DNA of 63,327 bases, the filler included, from Collodictyon triciliatum (Eukaryota), in NCBI GenBank assembly GCA_043381765.1. It is 5 parts of 5 records of this genome, joined end to end, with 100 filler letters (N's around TTAATTAATTAA, not from the genome) between each part and the next. Parts side by side here need not be neighbours in the genome. Positions count along the whole stretch, not along the records: positions 14,835 to 30,538 come from JBHJMP010001643.1; positions 30,639 to 46,342 come from JBHJMP010001644.1; 3 more parts are not named here. One strand, 5' to 3'. The translations under genes and the position numbers were made by a program. Numbering within the stretch: position 1 is the stretch's first letter; the number at the start of each line of letters is the position of its first letter. This document shows positions 23,578-46,342 of the stretch, in pieces. The notes beneath the pieces were generated by a model that saw nothing but the letters and a program-made list of their open reading frames with translations, made no database searches and was not told the origin of the DNA.

Positions 23578-24242
23578 AAAAAAATATTTTTCTTTCATAC
23601 TCATAACGAAAGTTGTAGAAAGATGGAAAAAAAAAGAAGAAAATCACCGCACTACCCAAATCTGCTTGGCCACGCATAATTCCAAGATAACATTCAATAT
23701 ATTATTCAATTACCGTCCTTTTATGATTCTTTACTTTCTATCGAGTGAAAAGGCTAATCATATACACACTGTGTGATTGGAGGTTTAAGAGAGAGAGGGG
23801 AAAAAAAAAGTGATTTACCCCTCCATCTTTGATTGGGTGTTGAAAGAAATTCAGAGGCTGGGATGCGGTTATAGGATAACAATTGGATTTTGTGGCATTC
23901 GATGCATTTTTTGTTTGTGGAGAGATATCAGATCACCAAAATCACATCTGAATGTGAATGAAGCGAGTTTATATATTGGCGCCCATCGTATTCTTTACTG
24001 CAAAATAGTTATTAACACAAAGAGAATAAAAAACTGGAAAGGGAAAATGTAGCAAAAGGAACAATAGAAAGAAAGAAAGAAGCCATCCTTAAAGAATCAA
24101 ACATCGCAGTTATATTATCTTTTCCATTCATTTCCTCCGCCTCCCTTTTGATGAAACTTGGTTGCGGAGTGGTCACTGTTACGCTTTACAGCGTATTGTT
24201 TGTCTTTTTCTTTTCGTATTTTTTTTTTTTTTTGATGGGGCG

Positions 24243-25663: not shown

Positions 25664-25915
25664 TGAAGCGCCCACCACAACCCGTGCATTTCTCGCGACC
25701 CTGGGATGCTTTGCGATTGTTTTATTTTAGCATATTTAGTGCCTTATTCATCTCCACTGGGAGGATACCAGTCTTTCGAGTGGTAAACCTGGTGCACCAG
25801 TATCCAAGGTCTCACCACTTGTTTCACAAAGGTTGTGTAGTGACGAAGACTACCAGGAAAGACCCAACAGCCTGTATTTTTTTAGAGGAAGGTGTAGATT
25901 TTTTTTTTTTAAGGA
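25664..25915 (-). ncRNA. Candidate Fanzor omega-RNA scaffold / element right end
   Basis: Lies directly 3' of the Fanzor stop. Minus-strand stems GTGGTGAGACC/GGTTTACCAC, GGATACTGGT/ACTGGTATCC and AAGCATCCCA/TGGGCGCTT, ending in TTCA like TnpB right ends. Confidence 0.45.
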
Positions 25916-27800
25916 TTAAAAGAACTTTCTGAGTATATTATTAGCGCTGTTAAACTCCCTTGTCAAGAATACACTTTGCATGCTTTCTGGGCGATTGCAT
26001 TCTTTACATATGAGACATCTATACATTTTTTTTTGGATTTCCTTTCAGTGTTACATATTCCAGTTCTTTTTCGCAGTTGCAGCACATCTTGGAGGTTCTT
26101 AATCCATTTAAAATATCTGCTTCAAAAGGTTTGGGAAGTATTTTTCGTAATCCTCTTCCGATTGTTGCCATAAAATATTTCATCTGAAATTTTCTGTTTC
26201 AGTCTCCATACGCCAGCACAACATCCTTGCCAAATGCCTTTTCGATTCGGTACATAAACAATTGTTCACTTCTTTTTGTGTTAACATACTGTCTCCATCT
26301 CATCTTTCGAAAAGTTATTTGTTCATAAAATCTTGATAATTCTATCTGATATCATGGTTTTATAGATACATATTTTCGAATTTTTTCCATAATCGACCAT
26401 GCGTGAATTATTTTTACTTAGTTCTGTCTCTAAAACGATTAAAGATACTCTTGATGTCTCAAACTGCTGATTCTCTTCAAAAGACATTTGCCCAAAAGAA
26501 AAAGCACTTTGTAAATCTGTTGCCATGTATATCCCTGAAGCATTGTACTTTTCTTTTCTCGCGCAGAGTATTTTGTGATTTTTAAAGAGATTTGCTATCA
26601 TGTCTTCTTTGGTGTGCCGTGTAACGTAATTTCTTGCCTGTCTCGTCCACTATGTAAACAAAATTAAACTTGCCTGCGTCCACTCCAACTATTTCATTTG
26701 TCGCTAATAAAGATAACTGCTCTTTGGAAAGTTCATCTATATAAGCATATTCTTGGGTCTTCTGATTATATTGGATTTTTGAATTTGAAATACCCTTTCT
26801 TTTCAAACAATAATGAAACTATCGGGCTGTCTGTTTGTATCATGCATTTAAAATTATAGTCTCTTTGACGGAAGACCATCTTCATTTCAAAAAACGTATC
26901 CCATAGTGTCTCCTTACATCCTGATATATTCTTCAGTATGTTTTTCCAGTTAATACAAAAAGAACTATCAAATATGCGTTATTTAAGGTATTATGACATG
27001 GTATATTGTTAGTTCTTACAGAGATTGGTTGATACAGTTTGGCTCTAGTGTCCTCAAAAAAGCGATTCATGTAAATCAGACATGGAATGCACTTATTTGG
27101 ATTGACTTGGACGTCATATTCGATACTTTTTACAATATTGCTGGGAATGATACGATGCAAATGCGTTCTAGCCCATTCTTTGTATTGTTTCGGTATTTCG
27201 AGTTTCATGAAAATGGCTTTTTTTTTAACTTTCGTAACTCTGGCTTTTGAATAGCTTCGGTCATATTCTCATCTTTAGGAACTGTTTGGTTTATAAAGCG
27301 CAGTAACATTTTTGCAAAATGTTCCTTAATATTACTATGATAAGCTGTTAACGTTCGCTTCGCTAAGTACGGTAGTACACGAGACAGTCCAACCAACAGA
27401 AAGCGTTCTTCTCGGGACAAAAGGAATCGAAAATCATTGAGATAAAAAGTCATCAAGTCATCCCTCATTTCTGGTTTTTAATATTGTGGGTCTATCTTGT
27501 AAAACTATTCCGACTGTCTTTAAAGCGTACAAAAAAAAACTTTCATTGATTGTTTGGAGTTGTTGTGATTTCAATATGTAACATCTTGCAAACAGAAAAG
27601 TGTCGGTAATCAAATTATGACACAATAAAACCGTACCGTTGATTATGTCATAGTCATCCGCATTCTTTACAATCGAGTTTAGACATGCTTTCACATTTCG
27701 ATAGTCTGGTTTTACAGACTTTAAACTCTCAGATTCAAGACGTTTTCTTCATCTGAAAGTCTTTGCTTTACTTTTTCCTTTGGAAAACTACCAAGTTTTA
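25916..27800 (-). pseudogene. Fanzor1 (TnpB-derived RuvC nuclease) pseudogene with multiple frameshifts
   Basis: Collinear fragments: YRNVKACLNSIVKN, YHSNIKEHF..LLRFIN, YNFKCMIQTDSPIVSLLF, RuvC-I IVGVDAG, VLAYGD, RuvC-II-like ILNGLRTSKMCCNC, CLICKEC and RuvC-III-like TREFNSANNI. No introns. Confidence 0.85.
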
Positions 27801-29302
27801 AATTTTGATAAAACTTTAGTCAATCAGTCAATTTAATAAAAATAAAAATAAACTGCACAAAATCAATTCATGTAAAATTAAGCATCTACCGAGACTCTAA
27901 AAATTTGCATTATGGCAATCAAACATACAAGGTTTTTTTTTTATAAGTGATTTGAGACAAAACGCTGAGAGCTGATTCGGCGAGTTCGAAAGGACGGCCG
28001 TATAGCAATTGCGACTGAAAGTCAACATATCGGCCCCAAACAACATGATTACCGCCGCAAGTGTGGATCGTATGCTTTTTATGAAATGGATGTTTGGTGG
28101 CAGGTATACAGGGTGGGTTCTGTCTGGGCCAAGGCAAGGGCTTGTCTATAATCTTGAATTTTAATGATAATATCGCATAAATGAAAATATAGCATAAATT
28201 GATTATAGGAATAGAGTGCGATTAAGTATTTTAAACCTTATTATATATAATTATTATACTATTATTCAGGTTGTTTCTTAGATTCACAAAAGCTCCTGCT
28301 TTCATCAATCCAGATATAATTCGATCGTTGTCTGTGCAATAAACTGCTACATATGAATACGCTTTCGTTGTATAAAAAGTGTTGTCCCTTGAAAGGGATA
28401 AACCCAGGTTCGTCACCTTTGAATCGAATAAAGGAAAAAAAAAACCCAAGTTCGTCACAACCTTTGTAATGTAATTTATCCATTTACAGATGAATGAGAC
28501 CGAATGAAAGAATGAAAGGAAAAAAAAAGAGAAGAGAAAAGGAGAAAAGAAAAGATATGGAGAAAAGGAGAAAAGGAGAAAAGAAAAAAAGAAAAGATAA
28601 ACGGGTGAATGAATCAGAGCAACTACTACTGAGCATTATAACCATAATTATCTTGCTACCCGTGGGTCGATGGCTTGAGCTCGATAGGTTTTTTTTTTAT
28701 TCCCGTTTGCTATTATTATTATTACTATTATTATTCGTTTCAAAGAGCCCGCTCCGTCTTATTAGTAATTTGTTGCACCCACGGGTTGGTGGCGGCTGCC
28801 GTCTTGATTGTCGGTGTGTCTCTGTGCATAACCTGTGTTGAAAGGGATGTGGTAAAGTGACCTTTTCGCTCTCTGCGTTGGCTGCGTCGGCCTCCTCAGT
28901 TTGTGTACGATCAGTAGGCGTTTCCTCGGGGCAGGGCTGTGGCGTTGGTCTCCTGGTAGACGGTCTCGTCCTTCTCGGGATCCCTCTTTCCGATCTCTTG
29001 CTTGCTTGTTTTTTTTTTTTTTGATTCAGAGTGTGGTGGGTTGAGAGAAGAAGAAGGAAAGAGCGCCAGTGTAATAATAATATTTTCCAGAGAATGTGTC
29101 TTTTTCTCTCTCTGTGTGCTTGTTTCTCAGCAAGAGGACTCTTTCTTATTCATATTTTTTTTTTTTTTTACTTTGCTGTTCCTCTCAACTCTGGCTCTCA
29201 GTGTGTTCATCACATTTATTCACATTGTGGGACACAGAATAGATCGATCTCTGGGAAATTTGCCTCAAAAACAAACCAAAAAACAAAACAAAACAAACAA
29301 AA

Positions 29303-29344
29303 TGATATCAATATATACTTAATATTAAGTATATATTGATATCA
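29303..29344. repeat. Perfect 42-bp palindrome at the host/virus-like boundary
   Basis: TGATATCAATATATACTTAAT|ATTAAGTATATATTGATATCA is its own reverse complement. Confidence 0.95.
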
Positions 29345-29678
29345 CTTTAACCCTGCAATCTCGAAATTTCTCCCGGAAACCGTTCGCTGATACTATATTT
29401 GGTATGTATCGGCGAGTAAATCCCTGACACTGGAAGATGTGTGCCGATGACAGGCGAGACTGCAAACACTGACACACTAACATAGAATCAACCCCTATGA
29501 TTTATATAGATAATTATCCTAGTTACTATTATATAATATATAGATTATATAGATTATATAGATTAGCTGGGTTGTTTAATAAATTCATATGAGCCTTGTG
29601 CAGTTGTGCAGTTTTGCAATCACACCAATTTCCTAAGGCGATGCTTGGCCCTACCACCGACCCACCGACCCAGCGATA

Positions 29679-29843
29679 TTATATAACGACTTTTTCCAAG
29701 TCATTGTCAGGACTAGGCTCACGCGTTTCCATCACGCTACCACAACACTGAGACTTACGAACGTGTTTTAAATAATACTTCATCGCACGCTCAGCAATCA
29801 AACACAAGTTAATAATCAACGATACAATCAATACCGGGTCCAT
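29679..29843 (-). CDS. Small (54 aa) predicted single-pass membrane protein with KSQCCG motif, virus-like
   Basis: MDPVLIVSLIINLCLIAERAMKYYLKHVRKSQCCGS...: hydrophobic N-terminus, basic patch and CC motif. The ATG at 29843 lies 20 nt after the upstream ORF's stop. Confidence 0.6.
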   Translation of the reverse strand: MDPVLIVSLIINLCLIAERAMKYYLKHVRKSQCCGSVMETREPSPDNDLEKVVI

Positions 29844-29863
29844 ACAATAAAAAAGAAATAAAG

Positions 29864-30538
29864 TCAGCCAGCATATACAAACCATCCAAACCCGCCTGGA
29901 GCAGTATCCCGAAACACACACCTTAAACATGTACTTGTTTGACCTGCAGCAACAACACTTGCTGTGCTCCCAGCTGTAATAGTCTGGACACCGCTGTTCC
30001 CTATTATAAACATTGATACACTAGTGCTATTAGTAAAACTAACAGCATTACTTGTCGCGTTTGTAAAAGAAAGCCAAAAATTAAATCCATCATAGTCTTC
30101 TTGACTACCCCCAAAACTAACCAAATTTTTAAAATCAACAGTCGTAGCAGTCGCACGAGTTAATAAAACATCTTCGGGTGTGTTTCTGTCTATAGTTAAA
30201 GTGCCACCCGTAAATTTTGTATTCGTTGCTCTTTGTTTATAAACACCTCTGTCAATAACAACCCAATAAGGAGTCCCACCATTCCAAACAAACACACCTG
30301 TAATTCTAAACTCATTCATTGGTCTTGAAAATGTATATACCTGTCCAGCTGTTGAACCATCCACACCGATAGCACCTGACCTGACTTTTACAAATGAACC
30401 GGCAAGCGACAGAGTCACTGCAACACCAAAATTATTTAAGTCACCTGTTAACATAAATTCAAATTCAAAGCCATCGTATGATTGACCCATATTGCCAAGT
30501 GTAATATTCTTTTGTGATGAAATAGAATTAGATATAAG
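29864..30538 (-). CDS. Putative viral fibre/spike-like beta-rich protein, C-terminal part (frame open to contig end)
   Basis: Intronless, Thr/Gly/Ser/aromatic-rich, with two similar modules (YDGFEF...VFVWNGGTPYWVV and YDGFNF...VFRDTAPGGFGWFV). Confidence 0.5.
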   Translation of the reverse strand, partial: LISNSISSQKNITLGNMGQSYDGFEFEFMLTGDLNNFGVAVTLSLAGSFVKVRSGAIGVDGSTAGQVYTFSRPMNEFRITGVFVWNGGTPYWVVIDRGVYKQRATNTKFTGGTLTIDRNTPEDVLLTRATATTVDFKNLVSFGGSQEDYDGFNFWLSFTNATSNAVSFTNSTSVSMFIIGNSGVQTITAGSTASVVAAGQTSTCLRCVFRDTAPGGFGWFVYAG

Positions 30539-30638
30539 NNNNNNNNNNNNNNNNNNNNNNNNNNNNNNNNNNNNNNNNNNNNTTAATTAATTAANNNNNN
30601 NNNNNNNNNNNNNNNNNNNNNNNNNNNNNNNNNNNNNN
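30539..30638. other. Artificial contig linker
   Basis: N44-TTAATTAATTAA-N44. Confidence 0.97.
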
Positions 30639-31356
30639 TTTTTTTTTATTTTTTTTTTTTTTTTTTTTTTTTGTATAATCGATTGCAAATACATTCCAAA
30701 CTCTATCTCGTTCAGTGCATGCTTTCGTTTATGAGCCATTCGTGTCAAAGGTCAGTATGACAGTTGGATGAGACGTGGGGTGGTTCAGTTCCTACCTTTT
30801 TCTTAAAAAGAAAAGGAAAAAAAGGAAGAAGAGACCATTTTGATTTACATATAGTTGATTCCTGCTTTCAATCCTCCATTCATGAACAATATCAACAAAA
30901 AAATAGCAGTGTAAACAGCATGCTGGAATCCATGACAAGCAATAAAGCAACACGCGCTGAAGCCCACCGCTTACAATCTTGTAATGCATTGCGCCCTTCG
31001 TCATAGCGGCACAGGTCTTTGTATTTATTTTTTCCCTTTTACTGGGCGATAACTGCCGTTACTAGTTGTGGCTGCGGCAACTGAATTGGCATTGCCAGAT
31101 GAATCAAGATCGTCGGCGTTTGCAGTGTTCGAGGCCCACACAGGCTTTGATCGCAATATCGCTCTTTCGGCTGGCTTACTCACGAGAGATAATCAGTTGA
31201 CCAGTTTGATAGATCGCGTCTGCTGCCTTCGAAGATGTCTGGTGCTGCCATTCTGAGGAGAGGTGTGTCCTACTTCCCGCTGTCTCTTGGTTTTGCATCG
31301 ATCCAGCCTCTTGCACTCGTTGCTAGAGCCGAATAGATTTGTATGCTCGATCGGCC

Positions 31357-33811
31357 ATGAGTAGTCTAAGGGCTTTTTCTCTCCTCTATTTCCTATATAT
31401 TTTTTTTTACGACAACTTCCAACAAAACATACAATCAACTTGAATGCACGTTTCCTTATTTGTTTCTCTGCTCTTTCTTTTTTTTCTTCTCAAATCAAAA
31501 CAGCTGTTCAACTTAAGGACAAATATCCTTTGTACGTTGCAAACAACCCTGTTTTCACCCAAGAACTTTTACCAGTGAAAGATAAGTTTACGGATGAGGT
31601 ATCACTTTTTCTTTTCTTTATATGATTCTGTCAATGAGAATGTTAATGAGGAGAAGGATAATCATATTCATAATGACAACCATAATGATTACTATTACTA
31701 TTCAGGTTGTATCACATGTCAGTGTGGCTAGCCCTGGTCATTTGGGTTTGTGGGGTTTATAGACATTGATGTTTTTCAGATACATCACCCAGACAAAAAA
31801 AAAAAGGAGAAAAAGAATCTCCCAGTGTCTTTAGCTATTCTGCTTCAGGGTTGTCTTCAGCACCTCGACTCATATTTTCTTCTGAGTACCTAAAAATCTA
31901 TTCTTTCCTAGAAACTGAACTGGTGTCTCCATTTTTTTATCTCCACAGAATCCGCAATAGAAGCAGCAAAAAATTCCTTCTCACAAATGAAGAAAATGCC
32001 GCCTTTCCAAAGAAAGGCTATTCTCCTGTCAATAGCTAATGAGTTAAACGATAGGAAGGAAGAGTTATCGCAGGTGCTTGCGATTGAAGTTGGAAAACCT
32101 ATCAAGTAATTTTCTCAACATAAGTATTTGTATTGATTAATTTCTCACGAGATAATTAAATGCTGAATGAAGGGTCTTTTATTCTCTATAAGGCTTTATT
32201 TTTTTTCAATTTCTAATAGCCTTTTTTTTTTAATTTTTTTGAAAATAATCTAATTGGACAATCATAATATTTAATTTAAAAATGTCAACTCCCCTTCTGA
32301 TCCCTTAAGTTCTGGTCGTATAAATATTTTAAATATAAACATGCATGAAATAATTTTGAAAACTTATTGTATCAGAGAACCCCTAATCATTTCAATGACT
32401 TCTTTCAGTAAATTTCGAAATATCCAAAAGTATAATAAATAAATAATAGAGATGCACGAGTTGAAATCTTTCGTGCTGTCACCACCTTTCAAGTGGCCGC
32501 AGAGGAGGCAACCCGTATGCACGGCTCATTTGGTTCGTATTTTTTTTTTTTTACTAGATATATACACTTCGTTTTGTAAAATTCTTTATCTGTTATACTT
32601 AAATGACTGTAATACAGTAGTGTTATGTTTCATCGTCATGTAAATTCTAATAACTATTCCGGAACTCAACCACAGAAACATTTGAAATTACCCCAAATCA
32701 CGCTGGATTCAATGGTCTAATCCAGAGATTCCCTATCGGCCCTATTTCCATGATATGCCCGTTCAATTTCCCAATTAATCTTGCTGTAATCAAAACATTT
32801 TCAAAATTATAACCTAAAACTTGCCAAGTTATTTTTCGCACACACATGTTTTCTCTTCGCGCGAAGAGTCGCCCAGTAGACACTCTGAAATTGTCTCATG
32901 TTTTAGGTTTCTTGAGTTGGGCGTAAATTAATTCCAAATTTTTATAGGCTCACAAAATTGCTCCCGCGATTGCGGTTGGATGTCCGTTTGTTCTGAAGCC
33001 ATCAGGTAGAATATACACTACTCTAGTAAAACACAAGACACTATAAAAATAAAAATAGAAATAGAAATAGAATTAGAAATAGGTCTGCGCGATCAATAAA
33101 TGCTTTTCATTCAATTTATTTGTTTTAAGCAATATTATGACACCCATTCTCCTATGACTTTCATATCTTTTTATTTGATCGGTGATTATTATTTTTGGTG
33201 ACTTTTATCCTAATCAACCCATTCCTTTGCTTGGCAGTTGTATGTGACTGATAATTACATATATTGTTTAGATTATACCCCCATTAGTGCGTCCATTCTA
33301 GGTGACATTTTGTCTAAGAAAGGTCTTCCTGAAGGCTCCTTTTCTATCGTCCCTGTAGCAACACCAGTAAGCGTTAGGATTACCCTCACCCTGGACATCA
33401 CCATAATAATCATATTATTTTACTCAGCCTCATATGCACTCTATTAAACTGATCATAATTTAACACGAGTACATTAATGATTTTTTGTACATTTTAATAT
33501 CGAAAGGATGCTTCACCACTGTGCACTGATGAGAGATTTAAACTACTTTCATTCACGGGAAGGTATTGAGCCCAATTAAGATACTTTTTTTTTACATGAT
33601 CCTCATTCAACTCTGGCGATCTCACAAACACTTGAGAATTGAATACTGCTTATATATTATCAATAATGTACAATAGCGCCCGGGTTGGTTGGGCGCTTAA
33701 ATCTAAGGCTGGAAAGAAAAAGGTTGCCCTGGAATTAGGTCAGTAAAATTATGAAAATTTTTATGTTTATTTCATCATTTTATAAATATATTTATCCCAT
33801 AAACGAGCGAT

Positions 33812-33862
<51 letters not shown>

Positions 33863-35430
33863 TTATTGTTAACCTTATTTAATCAAAGGTGGTAATGCTA
33901 CTTGTGTCGTCGAAAGCGACGCCGACCTAAATAAGGCTATTGACAGGGTTGCTTTCGGCGCCTTCTTTCAATCGGGACAGAGCTGTATCAGTGTTCAGGT
34001 TATTGAAATTTTTTTCTTTATTGAATTGATGTAGAGTAGGCTATTGAAACATTCAGAAGACTGTTCTCCGATGAAAGGGGGTGCATCTATTTAGATATAT
34101 GATGTGGGCAGTGCGATTTTTTCTTATTGGATTTATAATCTCATGATATTGGAAAATTTCATTAGCGAGTGGATGTCCACGAAAGTGTTTATGATAAATT
34201 CAAGCAAGGATTGATTGAAAAAGTTCGTGCCATCTCTTGTGGTATTGTTTCCTCTCCATCCACAGGAAAAGTCACGCTCTTCCTCCTGTCATATGTATTT
34301 AATACTTGAGTCGTGTTTAGGTGATCCTTTTGATGAGTCAACCACAGTGGGCCCGCTTATATCGGAGAAGGAAGCAATTCGCGTGGAGGTGCATTCTTGT
34401 CTAATTTCTAATGGAAAAAATAGACAAATCATAGTGCTTATTGGTTATATGGCACCACGTCAAGACTTTTAATTTATTTTGCAACTTGGAACAGATGTGG
34501 GTAAAAAATGCTATTCTTTCCGGAGCACGACTTTTACATGGTGGAAATAGAAACTCGTCTGTTTTTGGTAAGATAGAATGGCTATTGAAGTATGTACTAT
34601 ATATAAAAGGGTTAGCTGCTCTCAGCTGACGCATATTGACATACTATTATTTATTGTTAATTAACGTAGAGCCCACCATTTTGGAGAACGTTGATTCTTC
34701 GGCAGACCTTTATTGCGAGGAAATATTCGGGTATGGTCAGAGTCATATTGATTTGTATTTTTTTTCTTTTATGGTGTACAGATCAAATATCAACCAATCT
34801 CTAATCAAATGTCGAACGTGGTCCAGCCCGGTAGTCCACTTGACCAAGTTTACCGAGTTTAAGGAAGCCTGCCGTCGTGTGAATGAATCAAAGTATGGTC
34901 TTCAGACGGGATTGTTCACCCACAACATTAACAAGGTAACTATATACGTGAGCTCTTCATGCCTGAGTCGTCGATGTGTATTATCTCGTCTTTCTTTGCC
35001 AACATCTCCACCATCCCGCACAAAATTGAAAGGAAGAATAAAAAAAAAATCTCGTCTTTCTTTGAGGAACCTTCATTTCACCTTCCATTTAATTATTGTT
35101 AGCCGAAGAAAAATGATATATCTTTAAACGGGTAGGTTTTCTACGCTTTTAATGAGATGGAAGTGGGAGGGCTTGTTATCAATGACGTCCCATCTATTAG
35201 GATGGACCCACAGCCCGTATGATTCTCATATGTTCTGAAATAATCCCTTTGTTCAAGGACCTCAATTTTACACTCGCCCGTGCAATCAGTCTCACCACTC
35301 CACACTCCATATCTTCATTTAGTACGGGGGAGCAAAGGACTCTGGGTTTGGGCGAGAGGGTCTCAGATACGCCATGGAGGAGATGACTGACCTGAAGTGT
35401 TTGACTCTTAAAAATATCTCCAGCCTCTAA
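31357..35430 (+). CDS. Aldehyde dehydrogenase, ALDH21-like, highly intron-interrupted
   Basis: MTVQLKDKYPLYVAN, RFPIGPISMICPFNFP, HKIAPAIAVGCPFVLKP, SFTGS, GKKKVALELGGNA, catalytic QSGQSCISVQR, EEIFG-PV and YGGAKDSGFGREG. Confidence 0.92.
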
Positions 35431-36133
35431 CTCTCATCTAAAAGGCGAGAGAAATAAATCTCTGCAGCAGAGCCAGGCGATTCGGATGTGGGGGCATATT
35501 GTGTGTTGGGTAGTAAATCAATTGAGCAAGGAAGAGAGTGCAATATTCATCCAATCTTACGGATTACTGCGGTGACAAAAACGATATCGACAAGGTAGTT
35601 ACTTTTTCTTTTGTTTTCTTTTTTTTTTCTTTCACTTTGTTCATGTGCGTATCATCAATGTGTTACGGTCGGACCCACCACGCCATATCTTTCCTCTGGG
35701 CGCATGTGATGTGGCAGCCTTGCGCTTCGGTGAAGGAATACCTCTTTGGTGACGGGCGGCCGGCGCCTTGACGTCCATAATTGGAATCCACATATGGTAT
35801 TAACTTACTTGGCATGATTAACCATGGCTTCCTTTTTCTTTTCTCCTCGCTCGCTCTGATTCACCCACAAAACCAGATTGATCGGCGATAGAACCGGCTT
35901 GGACGGAGGCGTCTCGCTCTCGTGTGTCACCAGTTTCTCGGAAAGTGATGTGGACTGGAGTGGTAGTCCATAAAGACCAATTGGGCCATCATATTGCAGA
36001 CTTTTAATACCCGTACAGTCGCCCATGCTCTAGCTTTTTCTATAAGAGTGTAAACAACAGTTATCGTGCCATGGGTCTTTTGCGAGTTGGAGCTGATTCG
36101 AGGGACGCTTGCCATATTTTTTGGTTTTTTCTT

Positions 36134-36220
36134 TTTTGGTTTTTGGTTTTTGGTTTTTGGTTTTTGGTTTTTGGTTTTTGGTTTTTGGTTTTTGGTTTTT
36201 GGTTTTTTGGTTTTTGGTTT
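36134..36220. repeat. (TTTTGG)n microsatellite
   Basis: Direct reading. Confidence 0.9.
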
Positions 36221-36446
36221 CTGCTTATCCGATCCATTTTCTTCATATGTTTTCTTGTCCCATCTTTTCTTGTCCTCTTTTTTTGTTCTCGTAAATGCTC
36301 GACATAGTCTCTATAGCAATACTCACTTTTCGTCTTTTTTTTTTTTTTTGGATATATGGTTTTCCTTCCATAACTTGGTTCTGATACTTTTAGTTCGCCT
36401 CGAGCAAAGCCTTAGTTGAACTCCATCCACCTAGGAAAGCTAAGAA

Positions 36447-37393
36447 ATGTCTGGAGTTTTTGTTCTCGAGGCCTCTGATTCAACTACCTTCCAGGTAGAT
36501 AAAGTAGTTTTGAAAATGATGGTCACGCTTCACAACATGATGGAAGGTAGAATATCGCACATAAGCCAAACTTCAAGTCAATTATTTTATATTTACTATT
36601 TAACATTTAACTAGTTGAAGGAAACTTTTTTTCCTGTCACCCTGGTGACGGTTTAATCATTCCGAACGCACTTTACGATCATTCTTATCGCATAAACCAG
36701 TCAGTTCTCTGATGCATCCCTTTGATCTTAACAGATACCTGCGATGAATCTGATAATATGATACCGATACCGAACGTGAACTCACCAACGTTGAAGAAGG
36801 TACCACACTGTTCACTCTAGTTTCCTGCCTAACAACTAACAAAATCTAACCATTCACATGCTGACATAGGTGGTTGCATTTTGTGAGCATTACAAAAACG
36901 ACCCCAATGGCGGTGAGAACGAAGCATCCGAAAGAACTACCGATATATCTGGATGGGACGCAGACTTTGTTGATATTCCAATGCCTGAGCTCTTCGATTT
37001 AATCCTGGTATTCTATACAGAAACTCAGAATTAGACACAGCGTCGATGTCGCTCTTTCCATTCCCTGATCCTCATAGACATGCCTCTTTCTATTCTGCGA
37101 TCCGTATACGTAATTAAGTTACGGAACCTGATGGGCGAACTCGCTGCATAATGCGTGCGCCGAGTTAGCTACTTGATATATTTCAGTAATCGCGTTGCAA
37201 CCCTCACTAATAGGCAGCCAACTACCTCAACATCCAACGCTTGCTCAACCTGACCTGCAAGCGCCTGTCCAAAGAGCTGAAAGGGAAGTCTGCCGAGGAA
37301 ATCCGCCAGCAGTTCAACATCCCTAACGATTTCACTCCGGAGGAAGAGGAGGAAATCCGCCGAGAAAACTCGTGGGTCGAGGACCATATGTGA
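36447..37393 (+). CDS. SKP1: Skp1 (SCF ubiquitin ligase subunit), multi-exon
   Basis: [34 protein letters not shown]...[32 protein letters not shown]. Confidence 0.95.
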
Positions 37394-37874
37394 GCGTTCT
37401 GTCCCGTCTCAATACGCCGCGCCGGACTCTGCAACATCGAGGACTCGGTGATAAACTCAAAGCGCTAACCTGAAGAACACGTATCTCACAGATACTTCCT
37501 GTGTATTTATTGCCAGGTTGCAATTATTTATTTCGTATATTTTCTTGTAATATTTTGTTATGGAGTTACGGAGAAAAGAAGCAGGAGAGCTCCTCGAAGG
37601 GCGCAGCGCTCTATCGCGTTTTTCTTTTTCTTTTGCTTTTTTTTTCTCTTCTGCTTCAACTTTTGCCTCTGCCTTTCGTGATACGCCACGTGTCCATTCC
37701 ATCTGTTTAAGTAAGACCATCTTTCCACACGATCTCAAAAGGCTGCGTGTGCTTCTATGCTTCCACGCTTCTGTGTTTTTCCCACGGCGAGTCTTTAGTC
37801 CGCAAAACCGATGTAACACCTCCCTTTTTTTTTTTCGTCAAGAGAAGAAGACGTCTTCCAGGCTGTTCTTAAGC

Positions 37875-38499
37875 ATGCAGTCACGCTCCGTAGTGGATGT
37901 GATGATCGAACAAATGGTTTCTGCTCCGCAAAGTCCAGAGGTTTTGCTGCACCCTAAGTGGGAGCTTCTAGTGGCATTATCTTTCTCACTTTCTCACTCT
38001 TCGCTTGCTCTCTTTCTTTTTTTTTTTTTTTTCTTCTCTCGCACACGCTCTTATTCTCTAGTAACAAAAAAACTATGTCACAGAATTTGCAGCTTGTGCA
38101 GGAGATAGAAAAGAGCGGCCTGCCTCTCGTTCGATTCAATATACAGTCCCAATTTACATATGCTATGCTCAAAATTCTATCTAGGCATAAAGGCGATATT
38201 CCAAGGGGGCTCCAAGTGATGGAGAGTGAGATTCTCTCATTTAAGAATTACAGAAGCATGTAGTGTTCACAATGCATGATTATCGGCAATTAATTCATTT
38301 GCATATTATAATATTCTAGGTTTGGCTGTGAACGATTCAAAAAATAAACTCACGTATGACTACTATATCATTCTTGGAACTTATCGACTGGATGACCTCC
38401 CCAAAACACGACGACTGGCTGAAAGATTCCTCTCAGCCCAACCTAAAAATCAACAAGTCCTCGATATTCATGCTAATGTTGTGGATCGATTGAAGCAAG
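37875..38499 (+). CDS. FIS1: Mitochondrial fission protein Fis1; the C-terminal transmembrane exon is missing from this contig
   Basis: Fis1 TPR patterns QSQFTYAMLKILSRHKGDIPRGLQVMES-L and YYIILGTYRL...RRLAERFLSAQPKNQQV...DRLKQG. A GT donor at 38500 is followed by the viral element. Confidence 0.8.
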
Positions 38500-38546
38500 G
38501 TTGTTATTTATTTCTTAAATAAAATTTTTATGACAAAATATTAATT

Positions 38547-38591
38547 TGATGCTTTTTTTTATTCATAATACATTAATAAAAAAAAGCATCA
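38547..38591. repeat. Perfect 17-bp inverted repeat with an 11-bp spacer at the host/virus junction
   Basis: TGATGCTTTTTTTTATT-cataatacatt-AATAAAAAAAAGCATCA. Confidence 0.93.
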
Positions 38592-38710
38592 GGTTTTACC
38601 TGAACGCGAAAACTCAACCCTTTATATACTGTCCTATCCCGCTTTTTCATACCATATTAGGAAGTCCACCGGATAATTTTCGCCGAACCTTCGCTTTAGA
38701 ATGTACCGTA

Positions 38711-38731
38711 CCTAACCCTAACCCTAACCCT
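38711..38731. repeat. Short telomere-type repeat (CCTAAC)x3.5, i.e. TTAGGG on the minus strand
   Basis: cctaaccctaaccctaaccct. Confidence 0.85.
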
Positions 38732-38850
38732 CGCCTCTAAAAATAAAGGGGGGGTGGGGATGAAGACCGACAAAAGAAATTATTCCACTTACTTTTTTAT
38801 CAACCACAGCATAAACACAAACCTCTATTATTTTAAATTTTATAAAAAAT

Positions 38851-39112
38851 AATAACCCCAATGCCCCAATGCCCCCTATATTTTATTTCTCTATCTCTAT
38901 TCTTATTCTTTATCTTATTATATCTTTATATAACAACTATATAATATCTTTATATAACAATTATAGAAAGGGGTATTGGGGTATTGGGGTATTACTTTTT
39001 AAGAGTTTACAAAAAAGAAGTAGTGGATGAACAGAAAACCGAACTGTAAAAACGTAAAAGAGTACAAAGTCACTTTTATTCCCACCATGCCCCCTATATT
39101 TTATTTCTCTAT
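38851..39112. repeat. Sub-terminal inverted and direct repeat cluster
   Basis: CCCCAATG repeats at 38856-38876 face GGGGTATT repeats at 38970-38993. An exact 26-bp direct repeat ATGCCCCCTATATTTTATTTCTCTAT occurs at 38869-38894 and 39087-39112. Confidence 0.85.
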
Positions 39113-39121
39113 TAAATTATT

Positions 39122-39424
39122 ATGGAGTGGTCCAAGGATATAAAATTAAATAACAAACAATACAGAATTAAAAAAGCTAATGATGGCAAGCACAAGTATG
39201 TTGTTTATTTAATTGTTAATAATAAAGAAGTGTATGTTACAAAATTTGGAGATGTCTCTATGGAACAATACCACGACAAGTTTGAGCAGTACAAGCACCT
39301 GGACCATAATAATAAAAAGCGATATGATAGTTTTAGGTCACGCTTCAGATTACAATATGAAAAAATAAAGAATGATCCATCGCTTTCCTCCGGACTGTGG
39401 TGGTCCTGGAATTATCTGTGGTAA
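39122..39424 (+). CDS. Tlr6F-like protein (family typical of Polinton-like viruses, virophages and some NCLDVs)
   Basis: KHKYVV...KFGDVSMEQYHDK...HLDHNNKKRYDSFRSRF...SGLWWSWNYLW fits the KKY...FG...Y...H.D..RR..Y..R...WS...LW pattern. Confidence 0.8.
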   Translation: MEWSKDIKLNNKQYRIKKANDGKHKYVVYLIVNNKEVYVTKFGDVSMEQYHDKFEQYKHLDHNNKKRYDSFRSRFRLQYEKIKNDPSLSSGLWWSWNYLW

Positions 39425-39470
39425 TTGTCTACTTAAAAACATTTTATCATAATCAGATAACAACACGACA

Positions 39471-39857
39471 ATGCCACTCTCTGATAAAATTAAATACGCA
39501 CTACTAAAAAGAAAATATGAAAATCCAGTCGGATACGCTCGATATCTTGAGCAAACACTTGTTATTGATTTTCGAGAAGGCAATGGTTTACGACTTGAAC
39601 ATATGCTTGGAACTATCGCTTATAGGCCATGTTTAATAATTGATGGTGGCGACTTCAGATATTCGATTTCACAAAACGACGACCTCTGGGATTATGAGAT
39701 CATGTCAAGACGCGAGTTAGAGGCATTTACAACAGTGGATCAACTGCACGATAAACTAATAAACCAGATTAGTGTTTACCAAAAAACCAACGATGATAAC
39801 ATTTTTCAAGATATGTTTCAGACCGTCCTGGAGATTTTTGAAATAACCAAACAATAA
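39471..39857 (+). CDS. Hypothetical viral protein (128 aa)
   Basis: Intronless ATG-initiated ORF packed 46 nt behind the Tlr6F-like gene; no recognised motif. Confidence 0.7.
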   Translation: MPLSDKIKYALLKRKYENPVGYARYLEQTLVIDFREGNGLRLEHMLGTIAYRPCLIIDGGDFRYSISQNDDLWDYEIMSRRELEAFTTVDQLHDKLINQISVYQKTNDDNIFQDMFQTVLEIFEITKQ

Positions 39858-40169
39858 ATTAGTACCTTGTAGTACAAATTTATTATAGATTTTTATAAAA
39901 ATAAATTACAAAATAAAACATCTGCCGCAGTACAGAAATAAATCTCAACACAAAAAGCCAACACAGACACATCACAAAACACCCACATTTCTTTTTCATT
40001 ACCTACACAATTAAATTTTTTTGACTTTGAAACTCGACGGTGCCTCCGCAGCACGAACTCTTTTTTAAATGATCAACTGTATACTTGAACAGTCTTTCAA
40101 TTACCAAAACACAAGTCATAAGTAATGAGATTATTGTAACTGGTTCCATTACTTAAGTAAATATTTTTT

Positions 40170-41807
40170 TTATTCCACGCGGAAAGTCTGCTGGTTGCTT
40201 TGAATCTCTAGGACAGCATCGTACAAAGATGCAACAATAATATTATATGGTCCATCAGTATCAGCAATAGGTCCACTGAAATTTAAACGCAAAGACATCA
40301 ACCCTGAGCCTGAAGACTGGATATCTGTTCCAACATTCTCACCCTCAACAGCATCGAGGACTTTGCGGAGATTAAATCCAATCATAAACTCACTGGCAGG
40401 TCCCTGGCAAGTTTGTTGATAAAAATTTCTATTATTTCCTGTAAAAGTTGCATTTTGAGCAGCAACTGTAGTTGAAATAGTTGTATGACTTGCATTTGCA
40501 AATAATCCCCCAGTAATTTCATCATTAGCAGCTGAACCTGCAGCTTTAGCTGCTTTTGTTCCAGTTACTATAATAGAATTTAATGCAATCCCATTGTCAT
40601 TTAGGAAAATAGTATTAGTAGCAGATACCGCATCAGCTGCACCAGCTGACTGTGCAGGTAGAGTAACTGTAATTCCAGTCTCTAAATTCATTCTGCTGTT
40701 TAAATAATTTCCTGTAAAGTTGCGACCCTCAAAAGCAAACGGACCATTGTATTCACTTCGCACGTGAGTAAGACCTAGCGCCTTTTGCAACTCTAAAAAT
40801 ACTTGGGGCGCATTGCCTTCGCAGTCCATGGGTTGCAAAGGATAATAAAATGACCCAAGTTGAAGCTGAGCGTCTACAAGTGTCGGGGGTTTATGTTTTC
40901 TATCTTTACCTGGTACCATGAATGTGTTCTGCTCACGCTGCTTGAAAAATGCAATAAACACACTATTCAAACTTTTAACTGTGTCATTAATATTAAACAC
41001 GTGTAATGTTTGCTGACCATTTGGTAAACTATACATTGATGTCCTCCACGTTTTGTATGGAATTTGCAGGGGAACGCCACGTTGAATACTTGATTGAAGT
41101 TGTTGATGATATTCAGGTGCCATTCTCACGACATCGTAGGTCAAGTAACATTGACTTAGTTCATATGTTGCATCTGTAGGAGGAGCTCCTGTGGTAGTAT
41201 TATTAATTTGACACGCATCCCTTGCAGGAGCTAATTCTATTTCAATCTGAAAAGCTGAAACAGAATCAATCAAAGACGTGCTAATGAGACCCGAGTAATT
41301 GCTAATACCAGACAGTCTAAAAGGAACGCAATACTTTCGAGACGAGGTGTATCCACTATTAGTTCCTTGGACTGCAGTCAATACTCTGGAACTATACGGA
41401 CCTATTCCTATTACAGCCTGACCAACACATTCATTAAAATCTTTTGATAAGTAATTCATAAACATACTAGATAAATAACTGTATCTTTGGATGTCTTCCA
41501 AAAGAAAAGATGACCCCTTTCTAATACGAAGATTTCCAAATACCGATTCTATATCATTACAAAATGTTGCATCATAAGTTCCAGCAGGAGCAGTTACTTG
41601 AATTCGCGCTGAAAAATGAAGCATCAGTGTATCCATATCTATCTCCATACCTGTTTCGCTTGGAATATTAAAAAGTATTCTATCTATTGAACTTGGTCCA
41701 AAGATTGAACCATTGAATGGACTAATTCGAGTTGTGTGTCGTGCAAGAACTTTATCATTGTAATTCTTGACGCGCATATATTTTGCTTCAGAGGGAAATT
41801 CAGCCAT
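40170..41807 (-). CDS. Major capsid protein (double jelly-roll) of Polinton-like virus/virophage type
   Basis: 545-aa intronless, beta-rich ORF with PLV-MCP-like patterns ISPFNGSIFGP..ILFNIP..IDMDTLMLHF, SVFGNLRI..G..LLEDIQRY, IEIELA, YDVVRM, SLNSVFIAF, QLGSFYYPLQP, FMIGFNL and terminal YDAVLEI. Confidence 0.85.
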   Translation of the reverse strand: MAEFPSEAKYMRVKNYNDKVLARHTTRISPFNGSIFGPSSIDRILFNIPSETGMEIDMDTLMLHFSARIQVTAPAGTYDATFCNDIESVFGNLRIRKGSSFLLEDIQRYSYLSSMFMNYLSKDFNECVGQAVIGIGPYSSRVLTAVQGTNSGYTSSRKYCVPFRLSGISNYSGLISTSLIDSVSAFQIEIELAPARDACQINNTTTGAPPTDATYELSQCYLTYDVVRMAPEYHQQLQSSIQRGVPLQIPYKTWRTSMYSLPNGQQTLHVFNINDTVKSLNSVFIAFFKQREQNTFMVPGKDRKHKPPTLVDAQLQLGSFYYPLQPMDCEGNAPQVFLELQKALGLTHVRSEYNGPFAFEGRNFTGNYLNSRMNLETGITVTLPAQSAGAADAVSATNTIFLNDNGIALNSIIVTGTKAAKAAGSAANDEITGGLFANASHTTISTTVAAQNATFTGNNRNFYQQTCQGPASEFMIGFNLRKVLDAVEGENVGTDIQSSGSGLMSLRLNFSGPIADTDGPYNIIVASLYDAVLEIQSNQQTFRVE

Positions 41808-41828
41808 ACAATAGTAAAGAAAATAATT

Positions 41829-42188
41829 TTATGTAAAAGGTCTAAAGGGGCGTCCAGTGGATGCAAGAACGTAAGCCTGACCCAAATCGTGAATACCTGA
41901 ACCGATAGCTTGAGCATTCTTTATTTTAAAATCTGTATTTCCCAAAGTTGATAACCCCCGCCCCAAGTAATTCGTGGCTGTAATTGCTGTTACTAATGGG
42001 TTTGTTATTGTCTGAATTGCTGGCTTGACACCAGTTGTTGAAAGGGCTAAGTCAACAAGTCCACCGCTAGCTCTATTCAAAGTTTGATAACCTCGGTCGA
42101 TTCTTTCAATCCTGTTTATCGCATCTTGTGTATTTCTTGTTAGGAATCGCCCCACGCCCCTCGCCATCTTTCTCGCGTCTACAATCAT
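41829..42188 (-). CDS. Small basic/amphipathic viral protein (119 aa) directly upstream of the MCP; possible virion core or membrane-active protein
   Basis: Arg-rich amphipathic N-terminus (ARKMARGVGRFLTR), Gly/Ala/Thr-rich body; its stop is 21 nt before the MCP ATG. Confidence 0.65.
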   Translation of the reverse strand: MIVDARKMARGVGRFLTRNTQDAINRIERIDRGYQTLNRASGGLVDLALSTTGVKPAIQTITNPLVTAITATNYLGRGLSTLGNTDFKIKNAQAIGSGIHDLGQAYVLASTGRPFRPFT

Positions 42189-42238
42189 ACATATATCAAT
42201 ATTTTATTCTTGTATGAACTTTTTATCTGTATAAAAAT

Positions 42239-45200
42239 ATGAGTGATAGACGTGAAGGTAAGAAACCCGCAAAAAATCAAAAGGATATAACTACACCCGG
42301 GGGTGCTCAAAATTTATTGAAACGAATTAAAATATATGGACAACAAAAAAAATCGGCACAACAAGCAGAAGCTGAAAGAAGTACTTCACCGGATTCTAGT
42401 AAAACAGAACAAGCACCCGAGTCTCAACCTATTTTTAATACTCCGCCTAAATCTGTTGAGCAAAAAATTCAAGAAGACATTTTACGACAAACACCAACGG
42501 GCGCTAATAAAAATAGACTACCACCAGATGTTTCAGCTGCACGCAGTAAAATTGTAGAAATGTATTATACCAAAAAACAAACACCTGCTGAAGTTTTAAA
42601 AGTTACGGCTCTAACTGGATATCCCCATTTTGCAAAAGTAAATACTACAACTGCAACACAATACGGATATTTAATTAATCAAATAGCAAGACAAAGATTT
42701 AAATTTATTTATTCGGACGGTGGAGACGAAGCTGCAATTTTTCAAAGAGCCAACAGTGAAGTGGCGATGATATTATCCGGTGATTCTAATATTGTTAAGG
42801 ACGACTATTTTGCAAGAATTTGGGGTACAACTAAAACGGCTACTGATATGCAAAACTATTATACTTCATTAGCATATTTATACGCGGTTGAACCATGGGA
42901 GGCTCCTGTAGTAGAGAAACCACAGGGAGTAGAATATCAACCACCAAATGAGGAAGCAACTGCAGAAGTAGAGGACGCTAGAATAGTTAGAAAAGAACCT
43001 GATGAAACAGTTGTAGATCTTGAAAGTGATATACAACCGCAGCCTGAACCAGAAATTGTTATAACCACGGATCAAATTAATTCAAGAGCTGCAATAGTGG
43101 CACAGAGATATCCAGGCGTAAGACAGACAGAAGTATTTAATATACCGTGCTACCGTGCTAGTACATACAAAAAGCAACCAAGAGCTACACACATACATGC
43201 GTTGGCGAACGCTTTATTAAAAGAACTTTCAAAAAGAAATTTACTTCCAGCAAAAGAGGATTTACCGCCAGCTTTACGGCCTGCTGATTCAACCGAAGAA
43301 ACTTATGGTCCTAGTACTCCTGCGTTTGAAATTTTAGATGCTTTTCTTATTAAATATTTTACAAAAGAAGTGTATGATATATTAGTTGGTATTTGGGTTA
43401 ATGACGATTTAGCAGGGGGTGATCAAACGCCTCGAGACCGTATACATGCTAAACAAATTCTCATTCAAAGAATTGCTGAAGAAGAATTAATTAATGAAGA
43501 AGTTGAGCGTAGAAAACAAGATAAAGAACGTAATCTACGACAACAGGATCGCGATAGAAGAAAAAAAGAAGAAGAAGACAGACAAGCAAGAATTCGAGCT
43601 GAACAAGAAGCTACCAAAGAACAATTAAGAAATCATAAACTAAGAGATCAAACAAAAACTGATGAAGAACTTAATGAAATAAGAAAATTACTTACAGAAA
43701 GAAATCAAGCTTACCAAGACGTTGTTCAGGCAGGACTGGTTGTTCCCGAAGGGGTTGATCCTAGAATGCTAACATATGCTCAATTATTTTATATTAAAAA
43801 AGTTATCACGTTGGCAAAACAACAACAAAATGAGGGTAGTAGAGCAGAAGACTTAATAATTGATGAAAATTTTAATTTTGATTTATTGGATAATCAAGCT
43901 GAGGAGTATGCTATGTTAATACAAGCCTACAATTTGCAAGAGGATTTATTAGAAAATAAAATAACTGAACAATATTGGGAATTTCAAAAATATGCATTAC
44001 AAGCACTAGCTCCAAATATTGATAGTACAGAAGAAAAATTAAATGAGATAGACGCCATGATATTAAACTTTATGAATGAAGAAAATTTAGATGAAATGGA
44101 GTTCCAACCAGCAACTGATATAGAAGAAATCACAAGGACCCCTAGGCAAAGCCAACCCGGAACTCCGTTTAACAGACGGCGCACTGTTTTATTCAATGAA
44201 GATAATTTCATAAACAACATATATGAGCAAATGCAAATAGTAGCGAATTCGCCATTTCTTTCTCCAGCAAGAAAACAAAGATTACAGGAATCAGTTCAAG
44301 AAATAAATCAAACTTTGTTAGATCGAACACCCCAACGCCCCGTTCGTCGTGACATCTCACTGTCAGAACCTCGTAGAGAAAATTTTACCGCTTTTGCAAC
44401 TCCGACCCCGGTTACACGAATTGGTGGTAATAGAGTTACTACGGACGAAAGATTTAATAATCCTATACCTGGAATGCAAATATTGGAAATGCCTATTGAG
44501 ATGTATGAGAAAATGCAACAAAGTAAAACAAGCGCTAAAAAAAACTTATCAAGTAGGTTTGAAGAAATACAAGATGAACCAGAAGCTCCAAGTCTTACAC
44601 CTTCATCTAGATTTACCGAAATAATCGAAGAGCCTGTGCCTGTGCCTGAGCCTGCTTCATTTCCCCCTGGATTTCAGTATCTTGAAAATATGACAAGAGA
44701 ACAATTAATTCAAGAAGTTATTAGAGTACACGAAAGTCGTGATTTAATATATTTAGAATATGATAAATTGTTTAAGGGTATGTTAGAACAAGATACCATT
44801 CATAGACAAATTTATAACATTAGTGAAAGACAATTATCAAATGCACACAAACAGTTGATTGAAAAAGTAAATGGATTAACTCCTAGAAAACCTATAAAAG
44901 AAGTTAATGAGGAAGGAATGCAAACAGATTTTACAAAAACTGTTAGACGACTGTTTACCGATGACAGTCCCATAACAGTCAGAACGCAAACTTATACTCC
45001 AGCTAAATCCGTTTATCCAACAACAATTTTTACACCAGCGCCCTCCATAATGCAAACAGGTACATACACAGTAAAAATACAACGAAATTCAGATACTGCT
45101 GATTATAGGTCGGAATTACAACTTCTAGAGGATAAATTTGAAGAATACATACGATTGATGGAGGACGAAAGAGATGCTTTAGAGGATGATAATTTAGAAT

Positions 45201-46342
45201 TGCGTCTGAACCGATTAAAAGAAATGCAAAATAGAACGATAGATGACGAAAGTGAAATGACGGATCTTGAGATACGTTTAGCAAGATTAAGAAATGCACA
45301 AGCAGAAAAAAGGGATTATGAAGATCAAATAAGAGCAGTAAGAGATGATGCAAATTATGACGAACAACAAAGAAATCGTTTAATCAATGATTTACAAGAT
45401 AAATTAGGTGAAGCCGAGGCAACAATTCAAAGATTACAAGCAGTCCCTAGACCATTACAATCACAGTCCCAAGCCCCCATAAGAACAAAGGCACCTTCAC
45501 CAATAAGTAGCTCAACACAAACACCTGCTAAAAAATCTATCCCAGGAAAGGTTGATACTACCCCTATAGATCAAATTAAAGCGTCTCTCAAACAAAAAGA
45601 CTCTGCATTACAAAAATTACAAAATAGTATAGCAATAGCAAATAAAAAAATCAGTGAAGATGAAGTATCAAATGCAAGACTTATTGAAGAGATTGCAAAT
45701 TATCGTGAGGAAATCAGAAAATTAAAAGCTGAAATAGAAATTATGAAAACAAACGCTACAATTGAAATAGACAAAGCACTTGCTGGCAAAGGTATACGGC
45801 TGAAACAAGCAATTAATCGAGCCAATAGGGAACAAGCTACAAATCAAGTATTGCTTCAAAAAATAAGAGATTTAGAAAACACAGCAAATCAAACAACAGA
45901 CGCTGCAGAAAAAGACGAAATTATAAGACAACTTAATAATACTAAGGAACAATTAAGAGTATCTGAGCAATTACGAGCTGCAAGCACACGCCCATTAGCC
46001 GCTGCTCCAATTTTTCAAACTTCTCCCAGGCCTGCAGCTCAACCAATTTTTCAAACTCCTGTACCAGTCCCCAGGCCTGCAGCTCAACCAATTTTTAATA
46101 TTGGTAATAATATGTCACAACAGTCTACAAGTTCACAGGCAAGGGTCAGGGGCGTTCCGGCGTTTATTGCAGGCATGGTAGGAGGCGGAGTAGCTGCTCC
46201 TGTCCGAGCAGGAAGTTTAACTTCCTCACAAATTCCAATATTTAACACCTCTCGCCCCATTTTAACAGGAAAAGAAGGGCGTGATTATGGCAGTCAGTCC
46301 AAGTTTGCCACAACAATTTCCAGAGGAATAGAACAGAAATAT
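42239..46342 (+). CDS. Very large coiled-coil viral protein (>1360 aa, open at the contig end)
   Basis: Intronless ORF with several long heptad E/Q/R/K-rich segments, TP/SP-rich linkers and a repeated PIF(N/Q)T motif. Confidence 0.8.

Follow-up and report, generated by a model that had tools for sequence, protein, structure and literature searches.

We analysed 63,327 nucleotides of DNA from the freshwater protist Collodictyon triciliatum (GenBank assembly GCA_043381765.1; hereafter, the window), and found that both of its boundaries between host-like and virus-like DNA, the only such boundaries in it, carry a palindrome. The two palindromes have the same outermost letters, TGAT...ATCA, and different interiors. 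Our preferred explanation, to which we assign a probability of roughly 0.55, is that they are virus-borne terminal palindromic repeats, the outermost tips of integrated polinton-like virus (PLV) genomes lying directly against host DNA; their role would be in replicating the ends, with the tips as what the integrase acts on. The sites are most likely a further case of the terminal palindromes recently described in PLVs. Two details are new: the shared TG...CA-type tips, and a free-virus contig that ends at the hairpin base.

The window consists of five pieces joined by N44-TTAATTAATTAA-N44 spacers (positions 1-14734; 14835-30538; 30639-46342; 46443-62130, with a 982-N gap inside; and 62231-63327). 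Pieces 2 and 3, which hold the two boundaries, are each exactly 15,704 bases long, and therefore may be cut pieces and not whole contigs. We compared the window with 14 related metagenome loci (L001-L014) and with four sequencing runs (X1-X4), taken as assembled contigs; no run shared more than 0.30 of the sampled words. The contigs of runs X2 and X3, with template-switch-like adaptor ends and GT..AG joints, are probably RNA.

Both palindromes are real, and far beyond what chance would produce. Our scan for perfect hairpins with stems of at least 11 nt and loops of at most 30 nt returned just these two in the entire window. With stems of at least 9 nt and loops of at most 15 nt there were seven hairpins, and the remaining five all had 9-nt stems. 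When the window was simulated 60 times with a first-order Markov model, the mean counts were 0.67, 0.017 and 0 for stems of at least 11, 14 and 17 nt, respectively. Folded as single-stranded DNA, the palindrome of piece 2 reached -15.1 kcal/mol (z = -9.7) and that of piece 3 reached -14.8 kcal/mol (z = -6.8); for each, none of 200 shuffles was equally stable. The first-pass annotation of this DNA, which reported two internally different TGAT...ATCA palindromes at junctions of host-like with virus-like DNA, was thus correct in both respects, and the strings that it quoted beside them are present as quoted. Agreement in the outer 4 nt between two unrelated palindromes has a chance of about 1 in 256, and the shared tips suggest a common protein that recognises or cuts them. 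The left flanks read ...ACAAAA before 29303 and ...TTAATT before 38547. We did not find an inverted copy of either palindrome anywhere in the window; an exact search of IMG/VR with each palindrome gave 0 matches, and blastn among the five pieces revealed no similarity between the two virus ends.

The insertion in piece 3 is real, because spliced RNA joins position 38499 to an exon outside the window. An open reading frame (ORF) at 38280-38522 matches the C-terminal TPR of Fis1 (Pfam, E = 2.9e-7), and the RNA contigs of X2 and X3 splice the Fis1 exons 37841-37938, 38082-38225 and 38320-38499. After 38499, the X2 contig continues with 117 nt of sequence that the window lacks. The 30 displayed letters beyond this position, translated in frame, give the start of a hydrophobic membrane anchor of the Fis1 type, and had 0 matches in the window with up to 3 mismatches. 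Position 38500 is the GT of the splice donor, the palindrome lies 47 nt into the last Fis1 intron, and at least 7.8 kb of foreign DNA separate the Fis1 exon from its partner exon.

On the other side, the piece-3 palindrome's inner edge is where conserved viral sequence sets in, and it is also a discontinuity in an independent assembly. Positions 38592-38636 align with the 3'-terminal 45 nt of the metagenome contig L005, taken as reverse complement, with a score of 18, compared with 3.9 +/- 1.8 for shuffles (0/2000 match it), and L005 halts 1 nt short of the position matching 38592, that is, the palindrome's inner edge.

We classify the piece-3 element as a PLV because its capsid protein has a predicted double jelly-roll fold and a relative has an A32-type ATPase. 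The capsid protein has 33 homologues in environmental assemblies (46-82% identity, on contigs of up to ~17 kb). Its AlphaFold model, of modest confidence (pLDDT 56, pTM 0.57), matched double jelly-roll capsids in Foldseek with E-values from 4.7e-14 to 1e-9, including those of iridovirus SGIV (8hif, 4.7e-14), chlorovirus PBCV-1, Sputnik (3j26, 6e-11), vaccinia (D13) and PR772; a protein language-model look-up of the ORF gave the same lead. The Pox_A32 packaging ATPase is encoded by L011 (E = 1.5e-9). In L010 and L011 the genes come in the same local order: the long ORF rich in repeats, then an ORF of 114-124 aa, then the capsid gene and the small membrane ORF. Neither the capsid protein nor the capsid alignment found relatives in IMG/VR, the alignment found none among GTDB genome contigs, tblastn of the protein against the GenBank phage collection gave no match, and the capsid profile returned just two weak non-viral matches from PDB sequences (E 0.2-0.34).

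The proposed link of the piece-2 fragment to this element rests on one small shared gene. The predicted membrane proteins encoded at 29679-29843 and 40003-40149 have 46% identity over 39 aa (E = 3.7e-8), and this protein matches 9 of the 14 related loci. In piece 2, the neighbouring large ORF has 11 homologues (710-910 aa), whose N-terminal repeats are fibre-like by impression. It matched no Pfam family, its comparison with the capsid family profile gave a probability of 0.13, indicating that the two are unrelated, and neither the ORF nor its alignment found relatives in IMG/VR. No capsid gene is visible in the piece-2 fragment. The capsid-encoding virus family proposed in the first-pass annotation is supported for piece 3 by its double jelly-roll capsid; piece 2 has one small ORF in common with it.

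A conserved motif adjacent to the palindromes had also been described. It is present at both sites, but its conservation is at most marginal: the offsets differ (29 and 92 nt), the unbiased tests were marginal, and the motif is not kept in L005. Its pattern matched twice in the window, in none of the 14 related loci and in none of 300 simulated windows, a count that is circular because the pattern was written from these same two sites. Local alignment of the 150-nt flanks scored 26, compared with 22.6 +/- 4.0 in 300 shuffles. When the flanks were set against 600 real 150-nt windows under four scoring schemes, 60, 27, 89 and 70 windows did at least equally well when aligned to the piece-2 flank, and 21, 15, 62 and 28 when aligned to the piece-3 flank. 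The first 30 nt past both palindromes aligned with a score of 7 (2.8 +/- 1.4 in shuffles, 23/2000 of which match it), and there was no alignment signal in 45 or 60 nt. At the sequence level, flank similarity and the second motif are a lead only, marginally above chance.

If the palindromes are the tips of integrated PLVs, the single-stranded 3' end of a linear virus form would fold back on the palindrome and prime DNA synthesis, replicating the end without a protein primer, and the conserved TG...CA tips would be the ends joined to host DNA by an rve-type integrase. Substrates of retroviral-type (rve/DDE) integrases usually end in TG...CA. Provided that its symmetry is kept, the palindrome interior would be free to vary, which would account for two elements alike only in TGAT/ATCA, a pattern that fits hairpin-forming viral ends. 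Many PLVs have no classical polinton protein-primed polymerase. That the palindrome belongs to the virus, and not to the host or to repair, is most likely; hairpin priming, the type of integrase, and the same palindrome with a target-site duplication at the far end are inferred. The precedent lies in endogenous virophages and PLVs of Halocafeteria seosinensis, which, according to the available text of a July 2026 preprint, have terminal palindromes (52 nt in subtype 5) next to target-site duplications, linked to rve integrases and non-pPolB replicases, and for which hairpin-primed replication is proposed (bioRxiv 10.64898/2026.07.28.741278). In our full-text search of the literature, terminal palindromes in PLVs were reported only for this one halophilic protist.

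Several observations weigh against this explanation. The window covers one end per element, and a far-end palindrome, inverted repeats and target-site duplications are unseen. The free-virus contig L005 has no palindrome arm and ends at the inner edge; four of the related contigs reach into this end (L001, L003, L005 and L014) and none crosses the boundary, so that, at face value, viral DNA ends at the inner and not the outer edge of the palindrome. A TGAT...ATCA palindrome occurs in 0/14 related loci; the hairpins of these loci, seen in 8 of the 14, have stems of 10-13 nt. The ORFs of L010 and L011 that were scanned (10 by Pfam, 8 by NCBIfam) include no integrase or polymerase. Lastly, the left flank of the piece-2 palindrome, which has a (CAAAA)n stretch, appears host-like from its microsatellite-rich composition, with no RNA or homology result behind it. 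As for L005, its stop at the boundary could be a failure of assembly or library preparation at the hairpin, and an assembly effect is conceivable because related contigs break at internal repeats. A repeat of ~210 nt in L010 (481-687 and 2006-2212, 94% identity) flanks the ATPase region and recurs inverted at the end of L002 (6403-6537, 95-98% identity), the last 135 nt of L002 being found twice, inverted, in L010.

The same observations would follow from host repair, which we regard as possible but unlikely: a broken host 3' end snapped back, copied itself, and then joined the viral end at the inner edge. Conserved viral sequence would begin exactly there, L005 would end there, and the palindrome would be absent from related contigs reaching the region, as it is in 0/4. 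Arms of 17-21 nt and loops of 0 and 11 nt are also within the sizes of templated end-joining insertions as we know them, and accidental annealing is named as an alternative in the available text of the Halocafeteria preprint (bioRxiv 10.64898/2026.07.28.741278). However, two independent events would have had to stop at the same four letters (~1 in 256), ATCA shows no microhomology to the viral ends, which read GGTT... and CTTT..., and a loopless perfect palindrome of 42 bp is impossible by simple intramolecular fold-back. The Halocafeteria palindromes, as far as the preprint's available text goes, recur across whole subtypes, unlike one-off repair.

It is unlikely, too, that these PLVs replicate by rolling hairpins that are resolved at a conserved site. 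A nuclease of the virus or of a helper virus would then nick the ATCA at the hairpin base, genomes being packaged or replicated would have the inner edge as their end or be closed by a hairpin at that point, and the integrated copy would keep the full extended palindrome. Such a nick would explain why L005 stops at that base. If true, the polinton-like supergroup would gain a telomere mechanism like that of parvoviruses or poxviruses, tied to integration.

In a reading that corresponds to that of the first-pass annotation, the palindromes are sites of a specific enzyme (telomere resolvase, tyrosine recombinase or, at the ATCA edge of a terminal hairpin, a nickase), with hairpin-closed or hairpin-resolved ends and integration other than by rve; we find this unlikely as well. 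It would account for letters resembling a cut site kept at both edges around an interior that varies yet stays symmetric, and the end of L005 at the inner edge fits nicking or resolution at the hairpin base; closed hairpin ends would also explain why short-read contigs stop. Several points speak against it. The Pfam scan of the 16 longest ORFs of the window found no integrase or polymerase, recombinase, resolvase or HUH family, in agreement with the earlier statement that the responsible enzyme is absent from the window. No recombinase, resolvase or HUH gene appeared in the scanned L010/L011 ORFs either, and PDB and NCBIfam searches of these ORFs gave nothing useful. A telomere resolvase cuts at the centre, so that a linear genome should start with one arm; L005 keeps none, which is weak evidence, since it is a single contig and its end could reflect a broken assembly. 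In piece 2 the symmetry of the palindrome runs right across its midpoint, leaving no asymmetric spacer of the kind that is, as far as we know, usual in the core sites of tyrosine recombinases; the piece-3 palindrome has an asymmetric loop. The sole precedent, in its available text, ties such palindromes to rve integrases and target-site duplications. The window is no evidence for the new integration system that had been suggested, nor for a non-canonical integration route.

That the palindromes pre-existed in the host, the viruses inserting beside cruciform- or hairpin-forming DNA, is very unlikely. Both palindromes lie outward of the conserved viral terminus, toward the host, and targeting directed by structure would allow their sequences to differ. 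However, the ~50 kb of host-like DNA in the window have no other hairpin with a stem longer than 9 nt, so that such targets would be rare, yet both insertions are at one, and the common TGAT/ATCA would be left unexplained. An assembly artefact, with host and viral contigs misjoined at palindromic or adaptor-like sequence, is highly implausible. The pieces are short, the far side of each insertion is missing, and the last Fis1 exon is absent from the piece, as a false join would give. Nevertheless, the joins contain no Ns, and the piece-3 junction is exactly at a homologous viral terminus, unlike in a random chimera. A sequencing adaptor as the source was ruled out: the two palindromes differ in sequence, and therefore neither can be a shared adaptor. 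Transcription-termination hairpins, like the AT-rich intergenic hairpins of these viruses, are scarcely credible: related contigs do have hairpins with 10-13-nt stems just past genes (e.g., the capsid gene in L002 and L007), but the stems here are far longer, no virus-side ORF reads toward either palindrome (the nearest in piece 3, 39116-39424, reads away), and on the host side the piece-3 hairpin is in an intron, not past a used stop codon.

Table 1. Features of the two junctions and of the adjoining viral and host sequence (window coordinates).
Feature	Coordinates	Strand	Basis or remark
Piece-2 palindrome, perfect, 42 bp, 21+21 nt, no loop, TGAT...ATCA tips	29303..29344	.	Hairpin scan, folding
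First 30 nt inside the piece-2 palindrome	29345..29374	+	Weak similarity to piece-3 terminus
Motif of the first-pass annotation, CCGGAAACCGTTCGCT, 29 nt from palindrome	29373..29388	+	Pattern search
Small predicted membrane-protein ORF, 54 aa from internal Met (MDPV...)	29679..29843	-	Sole gene common to the piece-3 element
Large structural-looking protein, C-terminal 224 aa only, truncated at piece end	29864..30538	-	Full-length relatives 710-910 aa
Host Fis1 exon (C-terminal TPR)	38320..38499	+	Fis1_TPR_C, E 2.9e-7; spliced RNA contigs X2, X3
First 47 nt of last Fis1 intron, host flank of the insertion	38500..38546	+	X2 contig exits the window at 38499
Piece-3 palindrome, 45 nt, 17-nt perfect stem, 11-nt asymmetric loop, TGAT...ATCA tips	38547..38591	.	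Hairpin scan, folding
Viral terminal 45 nt, with TATA-like CTTTATATAC	38592..38636	+	Homology to 3' end of metagenome contig L005
Subterminal motif CCTAATATGG (minus-strand reading)	38650..38662	-	Relatives CCTAATGTGG near the same end in L001, L005
Motif of the first-pass annotation, CCGAACCTTCGCT, 92 nt from palindrome	38683..38695	+	Pattern search; not kept in L005
Telomere-like repeat CCCTAA, ~3.5 units	38706..38727	+	115 nt inside the viral terminal region
102-aa viral ORF	39116..39424	+	Weak homologues in L003, L005, L014
134-aa viral ORF, no family match	39453..39857	+	ORF call, family scans
Small predicted membrane-protein ORF, 48 aa	40003..40149	-	Kept downstream of the capsid gene
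Major capsid protein, 545 aa, predicted double jelly-roll fold	40170..41807	-	Homologues, structure model
124-aa ORF	41829..42203	-	Next to the capsid gene also in L010, L011
Long repeat-rich ORF, >1368 aa, runs off piece end	42239..46342	+	Weak counterparts of 1188 aa (L011) and 1368 aa (L010)

Within the viral end of piece 3 we found several further repeats and motifs (Table 1). The sequence CCTAATRTGG is common to L001, L005 and piece 3, and the copy in run X2 has a 33-nt insert at 38640/38642 that carries the motif of 38650-38662. The CCCTAA units are followed by a G-run at ~38748-38762. We considered this repeat as a host chromosome end and rejected the possibility, since it lies within sequence homologous to the viral end of L005. 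Halocafeteria elements are often near telomeric repeats, by the available text of the preprint (bioRxiv 10.64898/2026.07.28.741278). Farther inside, the terminal non-coding region (38852-38993 and 39082-39112) has an imperfect inverted pair of CCCCAATG repeats and GGGGTATT repeats, and a direct repeat of 31 nt occupies 38864-38894 and 39082-39112 (94% identity). The core of the latter, TATATTTTATTTCTCTAT, also lies shortly before two start codons, at 39124 and 42239, and is likely a viral promoter motif. For X1 and X4, the Logan contigs start at 38865 and 38853; cover is thin leftward of these positions, and we draw nothing from that. Separately, L001 and L007 start with the same 17-nt string, with which L001 also ends, in inverted form; the string resembles a primer for random amplification that was left over in the public assemblies.

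Among the genes of this element, the 102-aa ORF is dispensed with in some copies: metagenome contigs of X1 and X4 join 39118 straight to 39411, and therefore represent natural virus variants without it. Just past the capsid gene, the start codon of the small membrane ORF lies within a conserved hairpin with a 10-nt stem in the window (40120-40155), in L002 (6236-6274) and in L007 (1518-1556). The long ORF at 42239-46342 is charged and coiled-coil-like, with stretches of proline/glutamine repeats, and has no family match; its counterparts in L010 and L011 are syntenic. Downstream of the capsid gene of L009, an ORF at the contig end (6075-6266) resembles, by eye only, the N-terminus of a GIY-YIG nuclease.

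The host DNA is rich in micro- and minisatellites, such as (TTTTTGG)n, (CAAAA)n and (GAAA/GGAA)n, and in ORF artefacts coded by homopolymers (e.g., 36118-36236, and many sites in pieces 2-4). Ordinary host genes are found at 5720-7099, 55063-55491 and 56488-58119, all on the minus strand; one is a protein kinase (Pkinase, E = 1.1e-75), and the translations of the other two resemble CCCH zinc-finger proteins by eye. No viral enzymes were found in pieces 1, 4 or 5.

Terminal structures of other integrating or hairpin-ended DNAs are comparable to the two junctions only in part. Canonical Polintons/Mavericks have pPolB, an rve integrase, inverted repeats of hundreds of bp and a 6-bp duplication; terminal palindromes are, to our knowledge, absent from their classical description. 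What the present elements have in common with them and with rve/DDE substrates are the TG...CA outer tips and, in piece 3, a capsid-encoding polinton relative in the intron of a gene. In contrast, no integrase gene, inverted repeat or duplication is visible at the one end of each element that the window contains, and the end letters of polintons, as we know them, are different. In the available text of papers on cryptophyte and Tyrannomonas PLVs, the elements have inverted or direct terminal repeats with duplications; the words "palindrom" and "hairpin" do not occur in that of the former, and the sole hairpin passage in that of the latter concerns its giant viruses.

The terminal hairpins of poxviruses and parvoviruses are likewise AT-rich foldable palindromes with conserved letters at the base and a variable interior, and the asymmetric loop of the piece-3 palindrome would permit flip/flop. 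Unlike in these viruses, one side is here bounded by host DNA and not by a mirror copy of the genome, and the ORFs scanned in the window and in L010/L011 include neither a nickase nor a resolvase. We know of no poxvirus or parvovirus that integrates with the whole palindrome kept at the junction. Templated (filler, snap-back) insertions of the T-DNA type are similar in that they are short inverted duplications exactly at the junction of foreign linear DNA with a chromosome. They are one-off and have no common end letters, whereas the two junctions described here share TGAT/ATCA, and one of them is loopless.

The closest likeness is to the Halocafeteria elements as the available text of the preprint describes them: in both cases a palindrome of tens of nt, capable of forming a hairpin, is at the extremity of an integrated small double jelly-roll virus, against host DNA, and its sequence varies, between subtypes there and between two elements here. 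The position at the extremity was observed at both of our junctions; capsid and packaging ATPase are found for piece 3 (the ATPase in its relative L011), and for piece 2 only the shared 54-aa ORF. The differences are the host (freshwater here, judging from the matching runs), the capsid lineage, the lengths of 42 and 45 nt, and the common TGAT/ATCA tips, shared tips not being mentioned in that text. Boundary searches based on long inverted repeats, and calls of complete genomes in metagenomes, may miss or cut tips of this kind. The same design in a second, unrelated lineage, from a freshwater protist, with end letters common to two different palindromes and a free-virus contig that halts right at the hairpin base, suggests that the feature is general and functional, and not accidental.

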